A DNA stretch of 64,000 nucleotides from NCBI RefSeq assembly GCF_003334405.1, contig NZ_QOWM01000004.1; one strand, given 5' to 3'. Position 1 is the first letter of the stretch. Every line of letters begins with the position of its first letter. A program made the translations under genes and the position numbers. This DNA is from Escherichia coli (GTDB lineage: Bacteria; Pseudomonadota; Gammaproteobacteria; Enterobacterales; Enterobacteriaceae). Positions 11,868 to 12,587 of this stretch are shown here, piece by piece. The notes under the pieces are model-generated. The model was not told the origin of the DNA and searched no databases. It worked only from the letters and a program-made list of their open reading frames with translations.

Positions 11868-12036
11868 ATTTTTTTCCATCAGATATAGCGTATTGATGAT
11901 AGCCATTTTAAACTATGCGCTTCGTTTTGCAGGTTGATGTTTGTTATCAGCACTGAACGAAAATAAAGCAGTAACCCGCAATGTGTGCGAATTATTGGCA
12001 AAAGGCAACCACAGGCTGCCTTTTTCTTTGACTCTA
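11868..12036 (+). ncRNA. sraB: small RNA SraB region (yceF-yceD intergenic)
   Basis: 199-bp gap upstream of yceD; weak hairpin AAAGGCA-N9-TGCCTTT with T-run at 11991-12015; placement from established E. coli map, ends approximate. Confidence 0.45.
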
Positions 12037-12065
12037 TGACGTTACAAAGTTAATATGCGCGCCCT

Positions 12066-12587
12066 ATGCAAAAGGTAAAATTACCCCTGACTCTCGATCC
12101 GGTTCGTACGGCTCAAAAACGCCTTGATTACCAGGGTATCTATACCCCTGATCAGGTTGAGCGCGTCGCCGAATCCGTAGTCAGTGTGGACAGTGATGTG
12201 GAATGCTCCATGTCGTTCGCTATCGATAACCAACGTCTCGCAGTGTTAAACGGCGATGCGAAGGTGACGGTAACGCTCGAGTGTCAGCGTTGCGGGAAGC
12301 CGTTTACTCATCAGGTCTACACAACGTATTGTTTTAGTCCTGTGCGTTCAGACGAACAGGCTGAAGCACTGCCGGAAGCGTATGAACCGATTGAGGTTAA
12401 CGAATTCGGTGAAATCGATCTGCTTGCAATGGTTGAAGATGAAATCATCCTCGCCTTGCCGGTAGTTCCGGTGCATGATTCTGAACACTGTGAAGTGTCC
12501 GAAGCGGACATGGTCTTTGGTGAACTGCCTGAAGAAGCGCAAAAGCCAAACCCATTTGCCGTATTAGCCAGCTTAAAGCGTAAGTAA
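12066..12587 (+). CDS. yceD: DUF177-family protein YceD
   Basis: 173-aa ORF upstream of rpmF-plsX, conserved arrangement. Confidence 0.88.

Follow-up and report, generated by a model that had tools for sequence, protein, structure and literature searches.

The DNA analysed here is a 64,000-nucleotide (nt) stretch of an Escherichia coli contig (NZ_QOWM01000004.1, assembly GCF_003334405.1; hereafter the window), and the subject is the region between yceF and yceD, which carries the small RNA (sRNA) gene sraB and the start of the yceD-rpmF transcription unit. Positions 11100-12700 of the window are identical to the sequence of E. coli K-12 MG1655, and a window position plus 1134728 gives the position in NC_000913.3. 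From the open reading frames (ORFs) and RefSeq, the gene order is rluC (+), yceF (-), sraB (+), yceD (+), rpmF (+), plsX (+), with the sraB noncoding RNA (ncRNA) annotated at 1146589-1146757 of NC_000913.3 and yceD from 1146794. The Rfam SraB family (RF00077) matches over its full length (model 1-169, window 11861-12029; 210.6 bits, gathering score 130, E 4.4e-45), the match lies between yceF (maf) and yceD, as SraB should, and the synteny is the same in all related loci; an earlier sequence-only reading of this DNA had named the same sRNA. It is highly probable that the interval is the yceF-yceD intergenic region of E. coli K-12, containing tandem yceD-rpmF promoters, P1 and P2, with an intrinsic terminator between them (Table 1). 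The parts themselves are not new: sraB, yceDp1 and yceDp2, both transcription start sites (TSSs), the SraB 3' end, and a remark on the leaderless nature of yceD are all annotated or published already. What is added here is a correction of coordinates, the link between the SraB TSS and yceDp1, the reading of P2 as a stringently controlled promoter, the deep conservation of the leaderless geometry, and an argument for the co-option of a T-tract.

Table 1. Features of the yceF-yceD region (window coordinates)
Feature	Position	Strand	Remarks
P1 (yceDp1 / functional sraB promoter), -10 TAAACT	11909..11914	+	6-8 nt upstream of mapped TSS
P1 -35 TAGCGT, poor	11886-11891	+	
SraB as made, 109 nt	11921..12029	+	P1 TSS to terminator; first 109 nt of the 145-nt yceD-rpmF read-through leader
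Annotated sraB gene b4418, 169 nt	11861..12029	+	RefSeq ncRNA and Rfam RF00077
SraB hairpin module, ~56 nt	11915..11970 (approximate borders)	+	lineage-specific insertion
Conserved small hairpin CCGCAATGTGTGCGAAT	11976..11992	+	stem CGCA/TGCG, loop ATGTG; nearly invariant including loop; 96% of cells paired
SraB intrinsic terminator	12000..12029	+	hairpin 12000-12025, 3' arm entering T-tract, tail to 12029
Shared segment CTTTTTCTTTGACT	12020..12033	+	terminator U-tract = T-rich tract and -35 (12028-12033) of P2
P2, yceD-proximal sigma70 promoter	12028..12065	+	-35 TTGACT 12028-33, 17-nt spacer, -10 TAATAT 12051-56
P2 discriminator GCGCGCCCT	12057-65	+	8/9 G/C, starts GCGC
P2 TSS	12064/12065	+	SMRT-Cappable-seq 1146792; Salmonella dRNA-seq
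yceD (DUF177, 173 aa), b1088	12066..12587	+	no Shine-Dalgarno; first gene of yceD-rpmF unit

A reanalysis of data from differential sequencing of RNA (dRNA-seq) and from Cappable-seq has placed the SraB TSS at 1146649 (window 11921), the annotated 5' end being 60 nt further upstream, and found no dRNA-seq support for the first 60 nt of the annotated RNA (PMC7967276). The starts at 1146648/49/50 are labelled yceDp1 in a tagRNA-seq paper. The SraB TSS is thus the yceDp1 start, and SraB and yceD therefore share promoter P1. The corresponding position appears in the dRNA-seq table of Salmonella SL1344 as a secondary yceD TSS with a 145-nt 5' untranslated region (UTR), preceded by ...CATCTTAAACTATGCTCT, and the promoter is labelled 'Sigma 70 (-10)'. 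The 109-nt RNA folds into three hairpins (free energy, dG, -33.1; z -2.6) and is a published ligand of ProQ. It has the properties of a 5' UTR-derived sRNA made by premature termination, in that its TSS is that of the mRNA and its 3' end lies 36 nt before the ATG. On the opposite strand, a TAAAAT at 11905-10 would suit a yceF TSS at 11897 and overlaps the TAAACT that would serve P1, so that the -10 elements of the two divergent promoters appear to share DNA. Owing to a second yceF TSS, at 11972, ~52 nt of SraB lie antisense to a long 5' UTR of yceF; inspection of the sequence found no canonical -10 or -35 that could be assigned to this minus-strand TSS.

The 3' end of SraB is formed at a predicted intrinsic (Rho-independent) terminator, identified by a hairpin followed by a U-tract, by compensatory changes, and by an in vivo 3' end within the U-tract. 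That end, the term-seq position 1146757(+), is window 12029, and the term-seq table names it for sraB three times (Adams et al. 2021, PMC7815308). It is also the second T of the TTGACT that forms the -35 of P2, so that the first two bases of P2 are the final two T's of the tail. Among 42 distinct Enterobacteriaceae-level sequences, all 42 have the hairpin adjoining the T-tract (median dG -11.6 kcal/mol). In the helix, 90.3% of cells are paired, and four pairs are changed on both sides, with the compensatory changes in the upper stem; no shuffle out of 500 reached the observed pairing percentage or covariation score, and 41/500 reached the observed number of doubly changed pairs.

The sequence-only reading had recognized both the hairpin and the pair of hexamers, but had placed all of these motifs 10 nt too low; the motifs are real, and their true positions are uniformly +10. 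Positions 11991-12015, where the hairpin had been put, read ATTATTGGCAAAAGGCAACCACAGG, while the actual hairpin, AAAAGGCAACCACAGGCTGCCTTTTT, lies at 12000-12025 and is followed by CTTT to 12029. Similarly, 12018-12023 reads GCCTTT rather than TTGACT (12028-12033), and 12041-12046 reads GTTACA rather than TAATAT (12051-12056). The 17-nt gap separating the two hexamers had been given correctly, as had the yceD ATG at 12066. The description of the terminator as weak is a fair one, since its dG is -11.2 kcal/mol and its six G-C pairs are broken by an internal A.C mismatch, with 8/9 T in the tail (12021-12029). The central proposal, that the SraB 3' end is interleaved with a yceD promoter, is borne out by the term-seq end inside the -35 and by the primary TSS at 12064/12065. 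The distance of about 20 bp from this promoter to the yceD start was mistaken: only 9 nt separate the -10 from the ATG, and the P2 mRNA is therefore nearly leaderless.

The P2 hexamers match the consensus at 9/12 positions, and their 17-nt spacing falls within the 16-18 nt expected for sigma70. The pattern TTGAC[AT]-N16-18-TANNNT occurs only once in the window, both strands considered. Transcripts from both promoters have been mapped by SMRT-Cappable-seq, which captures 5'-triphosphate ends: one class runs from 1146648 to 1147708 and the other from 1146792 to 1147708, both covering b1088|b1089 (yceD and rpmF). In M9, the P1 TSS has 429 reads and the P2 TSS 681; in rich medium, the numbers are 320 and 595. 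P2 thus accounts for 61-65% of the long yceD-rpmF reads and P1 read-through for 35-39%. The forward starts in that table appear to be 0-based, as it has thrL at 147 and dnaK at 12047/12122, and 1146648 plus 1 equals the dRNA-seq value. Part of this calibration lies in the thrL and dnaK starts themselves, which we take to be 148 and 12048/12123. The SL1344 table classes a further yceD TSS as primary: its UTR is 2 nt long, the promoter sequence is the same as in E. coli, and after GGCTGCCTTTTTCTTTGACT...TAATATGCGCGCC it begins at the next C. A single read-through transcript with neither a 3' end nor a TSS at the junction, which the sequence-only reading had named as the outcome that would count against it, is not what the maps show, since both ends have been found; read-through nevertheless exists. 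Its supposition of a yceD-rpmF-plsX-fab operon needs correction: P2 transcripts cover yceD-rpmF, most of them end 88 nt inside plsX and only a fraction continue into plsX-fabH.

An in-frame TAA at 12051-53, inside the -10, makes the ATG at 12066 the earliest possible yceD start. The anti-Shine-Dalgarno (anti-SD) duplex predicted over the upstream 20 nt is -0.4 kcal/mol for yceD and -8.8 for rpmF, compared with -2.4 +/- 2.4 for random 20-mers of the window. With a UTR of 1-2 nt, there is no SD or other ribosome-recruiting 5' UTR. The P2 mRNA of yceD would thus be near-leaderless and, from its sequence, should behave as a leaderless mRNA. A ribosome-profiling paper describes yceD as a gene 'without 5'-noncoding leader' that is translated less efficiently than rpmF (PMC4378010); in the literature on leaderlessness of yceD or its control by ppGpp/DksA, only a passing mention was found. 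The known leaderless mRNAs of rhlB, rluC, racR, hprR, dicA, as well as cohE (PMC8794815) and of lambda cI resemble yceD in lacking an SD and in having the TSS next to the start codon, and poor translation relative to the downstream cistron is a further likeness. yceD differs in that its mRNA begins 1-2 nt before the AUG rather than at the A, in that it is absent from the list in PMC8794815, and in that its ORF is also carried on the leadered P1 mRNA.

Two side observations concern this start. An out-of-frame ORF of seven codons at 12055-12078 (ATG CGC GCC CTA TGC AAA AGG TAA) starts within the P2 -10/discriminator and overlaps the yceD start; it lies inside the invariant block, has no SD, and is possible on the P1 read-through RNA only. 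In addition, the SMRT-Cappable-seq TSS of rluC (ATG 10212; window 10160-10214), at 1144939 (0-based), coincides with the A of the start codon. This gene also lacks an SD (+0.2 kcal/mol), has a -10 TAGAAT followed by CGCCAACC, and is on the published leaderless list (PMC8794815). The neighbours rluC and yceD, both tied to the 50S subunit or 23S rRNA, are thus both of the leaderless type.

Conservation was assessed in a scan with one genome per species, which gave 80 loci with YceD identities of 88-100%; the conservation figures are over 81 sequences. In all 81, the -35, the -10, and the discriminator of P2 are invariant, and the -35 lies precisely 38 nt from the ATG. The P2 spacer is 95% identical, compared with 78% for the third codon positions of yceD, and the T-tract is conserved at 99.5% and the -35 at 100%. 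The P1 -10 block CATTTTAAACT is conserved at 99.6%, and the distance from the P1 -10 to the P2 -35 is 56-57 nt in 70/83 species. The longer form seen in the window is due to the 56-nt hairpin module, which is confined to the sequences from E. coli, E. albertii, Salmonella, Citrobacter, and Intestinirhabdus, and the Rfam gathering score is reached only where this module is present. In those 70 species, 'SraB' would be an RNA of ~50 nt, consisting of the small, nearly invariant hairpin and the terminator. The near 0% identity over 11915-11967 was considered as a possible MAFFT misalignment; this was rejected, as inspection revealed a real lineage-specific insertion.

Two departures from the common layout were seen. 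'Escherichia sp. MOD1-EC7003' (L003:1352-1464) has a YceD that is 99% identical but is without the 56-nt module, and its upstream sequence is like that of Pseudocitrobacter/Kluyvera, a pattern that suggests recombination at the yceF-yceD intergenic region. In Cedecea and relatives (L060, L052, L056; ~1300-1440), ~90-125 nt of extra sequence lies between the small hairpin and the terminator, giving a -10 to -35 distance of 148-183 nt, with P1 and P2 unchanged.

The arrangement -35/17 nt/-10/9 nt/ATG is also found in nine further lineages of Gammaproteobacteria, which represent eight families or orders. Among these, Erwinia, Dickeya, Ewingella, and Rahnella have P1 and the small hairpin, their P2 is identical, and their terminator hairpins become ever weaker (-8.3 to -5.0 kcal/mol); CATTTTAAACT is kept in Erwinia, Dickeya, and Rahnella, and Ewingella has CATCTTAAACT. 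In Salinivibrio, Dongshaea (Aeromonadales), and Paraglaciecola (Alteromonadales), where YceD identity is 39-53%, the sequence is TTTTCTTTGACT-17-TA(A/T)(T/C)AT-(G/T)CGCGC(C/G)CT-ATG, and these three show no recognizable P1 and no hairpin adjoining the T-tract. Piscirickettsia and one other genome (YceD 31-33%) have TTGACA-17-TATGAT/TAAAAT-9 nt-ATG, again without an SD. The T-tract is kept in three of the five lineages sampled outside Enterobacterales, namely those at 39-53% YceD identity, which have no terminator hairpin. The distant YceD homologue at locus L091 has an SD, overlaps the upstream gene, and is not followed by rpmF; the leaderless arrangement is not general to every DUF177 context. 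Since the P2 geometry occurs in lineages without SraB, the promoter-to-AUG module is much older than SraB, and since the T-tract is present without the hairpin outside Enterobacterales, it probably predates the terminator. Consequently, P2 is probably ancestral, and its upstream T-tract would have been co-opted as the U-tail of a terminator when the SraB hairpins arose in Enterobacterales, as judged from a handful of lineages.

The two promoters differ in their response to ppGpp (guanosine tetraphosphate). In Salmonella SL1344, reads at the P2 TSS rise from 15 in the wild type (Wt) to 208 in ppGpp0, a 13.9-fold increase in which the read counts are low, whereas those at the P1 TSS go from 41 to 85, or 2.1-fold; for the promoters of rpsT, that table gives increases of 18- and 35-fold. 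In E. coli O157:H7 in glucose minimal medium, yceD is down 2.9-fold and rpmF 2.4-fold at the growth transition. The G+C-rich discriminator that is characteristic of stringent promoters is present at P2, where GCGCGCCCT has 8/9 G/C and does not vary in the 81 sequences. On the Salmonella data, P2 appears to be a ppGpp-repressed promoter of the rRNA/ribosomal protein (r-protein) type, and P1 to be much less ppGpp-sensitive. P2 would thus couple the synthesis of L32 and YceD to growth, while P1 would be comparatively constitutive.

The likeness of P2 to known stringent promoters extends to sequence. At rrnB P1, TATAAT is followed by GCGCCACC, and P2 likewise has GCGC directly after the -10, with a G+C-rich discriminator. 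Like rrnB P1 and r-protein promoters, P2 has its start 8-9 nt downstream of the -10 and a tract rich in pyrimidines/T immediately before the -35; the 13.9-fold increase in ppGpp0 Salmonella is near that of rpsT. P2 differs from rrnB P1 in its spacer (17 nt vs 16 nt), in having no evident A/T-rich UP element of the rrn type, and in a transcript that has a pyrimidine as its first base and is protein-coding from the first codon on. As to SraB (RF00077; b4418; pke20/psrA4), the window is the type locus, with the same yceF-yceD position and terminator; the difference is that the cell apparently makes the 109-nt 3' part, and that most Enterobacteriaceae have a core of ~50 nt below the gathering score. 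SraB also resembles the 5' UTR-derived sRNAs of Adams et al. 2021 (PMC7815308) in having an mRNA TSS, a 3' end at an intrinsic terminator before the ORF, and partial read-through. It differs in that 1146757 is listed in that study as a 'primary' sraB end, and in that a second promoter overlies the terminator at yceD and allows it to be bypassed.

A model for the locus can be drawn from these observations. RNA polymerase that has started at P1 has two fates: termination at the weak hairpin and T-tract (12029), releasing the 109-nt ProQ-binding SraB, or read-through to give a yceD-rpmF mRNA with a 145-nt leader. Initiation at P2, 1-2 nt before the yceD AUG, would give weak translation of the near-leaderless, SD-less yceD, and rpmF (L32) would be translated from its own strong SD. 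During growth, P2 dominates and supplies most long transcripts, while P1 would steadily make SraB and leak into yceD-rpmF. When ppGpp rises, P2 would be shut off, and the remaining P1 read-through may sustain the supply of L32. Furthermore, a polymerase in the P2 open complex would cover ~12010-12085, including the termination point at 12029, and the two processes would then have to interfere.

It should be noted that several points weigh against this account of the locus. In a consensus scan, one promoter site was found in 1.7 kb, compared with 1.7 +/- 1.1 in shuffled sequence; the match is within chance, and the case for P2 and the terminator consequently rests on conservation and published end-mapping. 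A simple terminator scan did not flag the SraB hairpin, because its stem has the internal A.C mismatch. The P2 start is uncertain by 1 nt: in Salmonella it is the C at 12064, and in E. coli a 0-based table puts it at the T at 12065 and a 1-based one at 12064. P2 is probably the 'yceDp2' of the original S1 mapping. Under the strict definition, in which the 5' end is the A of the AUG, a transcript starting 1-2 nt upstream is not leaderless. Evidence that ppGpp represses P2 comes from Salmonella only; in none of the datasets used here do SraB and read-through counts share a scale; and the division of labour between P1 and P2 and the interference of polymerases are what the model would predict rather than what the maps display. 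Having lent no statistical backing to a promoter, the consensus scan was dropped as a criterion in favour of conservation and mapped ends.

Whether the overlap of terminator and promoter has regulatory meaning is a separate question. It may have none: SraB would then be a free-standing, trans-acting sRNA, P2 an ordinary promoter, the shared bases a result of compact DNA, and read-through a leak. This is a tangible possibility, if short of a probable one. With a terminator of -11.2 kcal/mol, leakage is expected; the T-tract is probably older than the hairpin, so that the overlap could be an accident of the easiest site for a terminator; SraB binds ProQ as other trans-acting RNAs do; and in Dickeya and Yersiniaceae the hairpin is weak or degenerate while P2 is unchanged. 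However, P1 transcripts at 35-39% of the long yceD-rpmF reads are above a trace, the order P1-hairpin-terminator-P2 and its spacing (56-57 nt in 70/83 species) are conserved, and the very different ppGpp responses of the two promoters give the tandem layout a plausible purpose. At the other extreme, SraB could be mainly a cis-acting, regulated attenuator, in which L32, YceD, or ProQ acting on the small hairpin or the terminator sets the level of read-through. The TSS common to SraB and the yceD mRNA, the binding of ProQ, the ribosome-related downstream genes, and the near invariance of CCGCAATGTGTGCGAAT, loop included, as for the site of a sequence-specific ligand, are all compatible with this. 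It is nonetheless distinctly unlikely: the minimum free energy (MFE) fold of the P1 read-through leader keeps the terminator and shows no convincing antiterminator pairing or structure occluding the yceD AUG, no ligand appears to be known, and P2, which supplies most transcripts, bypasses the attenuator. Furthermore, conservation of the loop could equally be explained by the opposite-strand yceF promoter or 5' UTR (TSS 11972) or by a trans-acting seed. A broader version of the idea, in which SraB is the terminated yceDp1 leader and an Enterobacterales-specific attenuator placed on an older, leaderless, ppGpp-repressed promoter, with a regulated choice of termination setting the supply of L32 and YceD when P2 is off, is speculative and, in our view, rather unlikely. 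In this version, the regulators could perhaps be ProQ on the terminator hairpin, occupancy of P2 by polymerase, or L32/YceD on the small hairpin.

Two other explanations would alter the assignment of the transcript ends. It is quite improbable that the annotated 169-nt SraB, starting at 11861 within the first yceF codons, is the main species and that the start at 11921 belongs to the yceD mRNA only. The original annotation and the Rfam model do span 11861-12029, and, according to PMC7967276, a 'canonical sigma70 promoter' precedes the annotated start and Argaman et al. saw more than one length. Yet all of the dRNA-seq and Cappable-seq datasets reanalysed in that paper put the TSS 60 nt downstream, Salmonella maps the same P1 position (145-nt UTR), and the DNA upstream of 11861 is yceF coding sequence that is not conserved as a promoter. 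It is hardly credible that the ends at 12064/65 are processing products of P1 read-through and that TTGACT-17-TAATAT is fortuitous. A bare consensus match is within chance expectation and a pyrimidine start 8-9 nt after a -10 is unusual, but the Cappable-seq chemistry takes 5'-triphosphate ends only, the Salmonella dRNA-seq classes the P2 start as a primary TSS, the ppGpp response is independent of that of P1 (13.9-fold vs 2.1-fold), and the hexamers and their spacing do not vary across Gammaproteobacteria, even in lineages where no P1 or SraB is recognizable upstream. Tandem promoters with the SraB terminator between them thus remain the preferred description of this region.

This description leaves knowledge of the individual parts unchanged, as they are in databases and the ends are in published genome-wide maps. 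The literatures on SraB and yceD have apparently not been joined: PMC7967276 re-maps the SraB TSS without mention of yceD, and the term-seq study files 1146757 under sraB rather than as a yceD 5' UTR end (PMC7815308). If SraB is a terminated yceD leader, its 'regulation' and its knockouts are to be read differently. A deletion of sraB also removes P1 and, when it reaches 12028, damages P2. The T-tract doubles as terminator tail and promoter-proximal sequence; it illustrates co-option cleanly and should caution anyone who engineers this locus. With its promoter-to-AUG geometry kept down to ~31% protein identity, yceD is in addition a good natural model of leaderless translation in Gammaproteobacteria. 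If the broader attenuator idea were true, near-leaderless expression of DUF177/YceD in Gammaproteobacteria would be an ancient trait under selection, one by which promoter geometry is tied to the start codon.

A few minor observations concern the downstream transcript ends and neighbouring elements. The main 3' end of yceD-rpmF, 1147708 (window 12980), lies 88 nt inside the plsX ORF (TTG start 12893). Term-seq has a very strong peak there (79,571), and both SMRT-Cappable transcript classes have their transcription termination site (TTS) at this position. The SMRT-Cappable operon table has an additional, internal TSS at 1146816 (window 12088-12089), 22 nt into yceD, with transcripts that reach plsX-fabH. 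A term-seq 3' end at 1147348 (window 12620) directly follows a hairpin, CCCCGTTGGATCGGGG, without a T-tract, in the yceD-rpmF spacer (12596-12620), and this hairpin may be a processing or protective stem between the two genes. Between rluC and yceF, a palindrome at 11203-11275 that resembles repetitive extragenic palindromic (REP) sequences scores 54.3/53.4 bits on the two strands with Rfam naRNA4 (RF02564), slightly under the gathering score of 59.5. Finally, the autoregulatory element of the RNase E 5' UTR is present at 9664-10000 (-), upstream of rne as expected, as a full-length match to Rfam RF00040 (260 bits).

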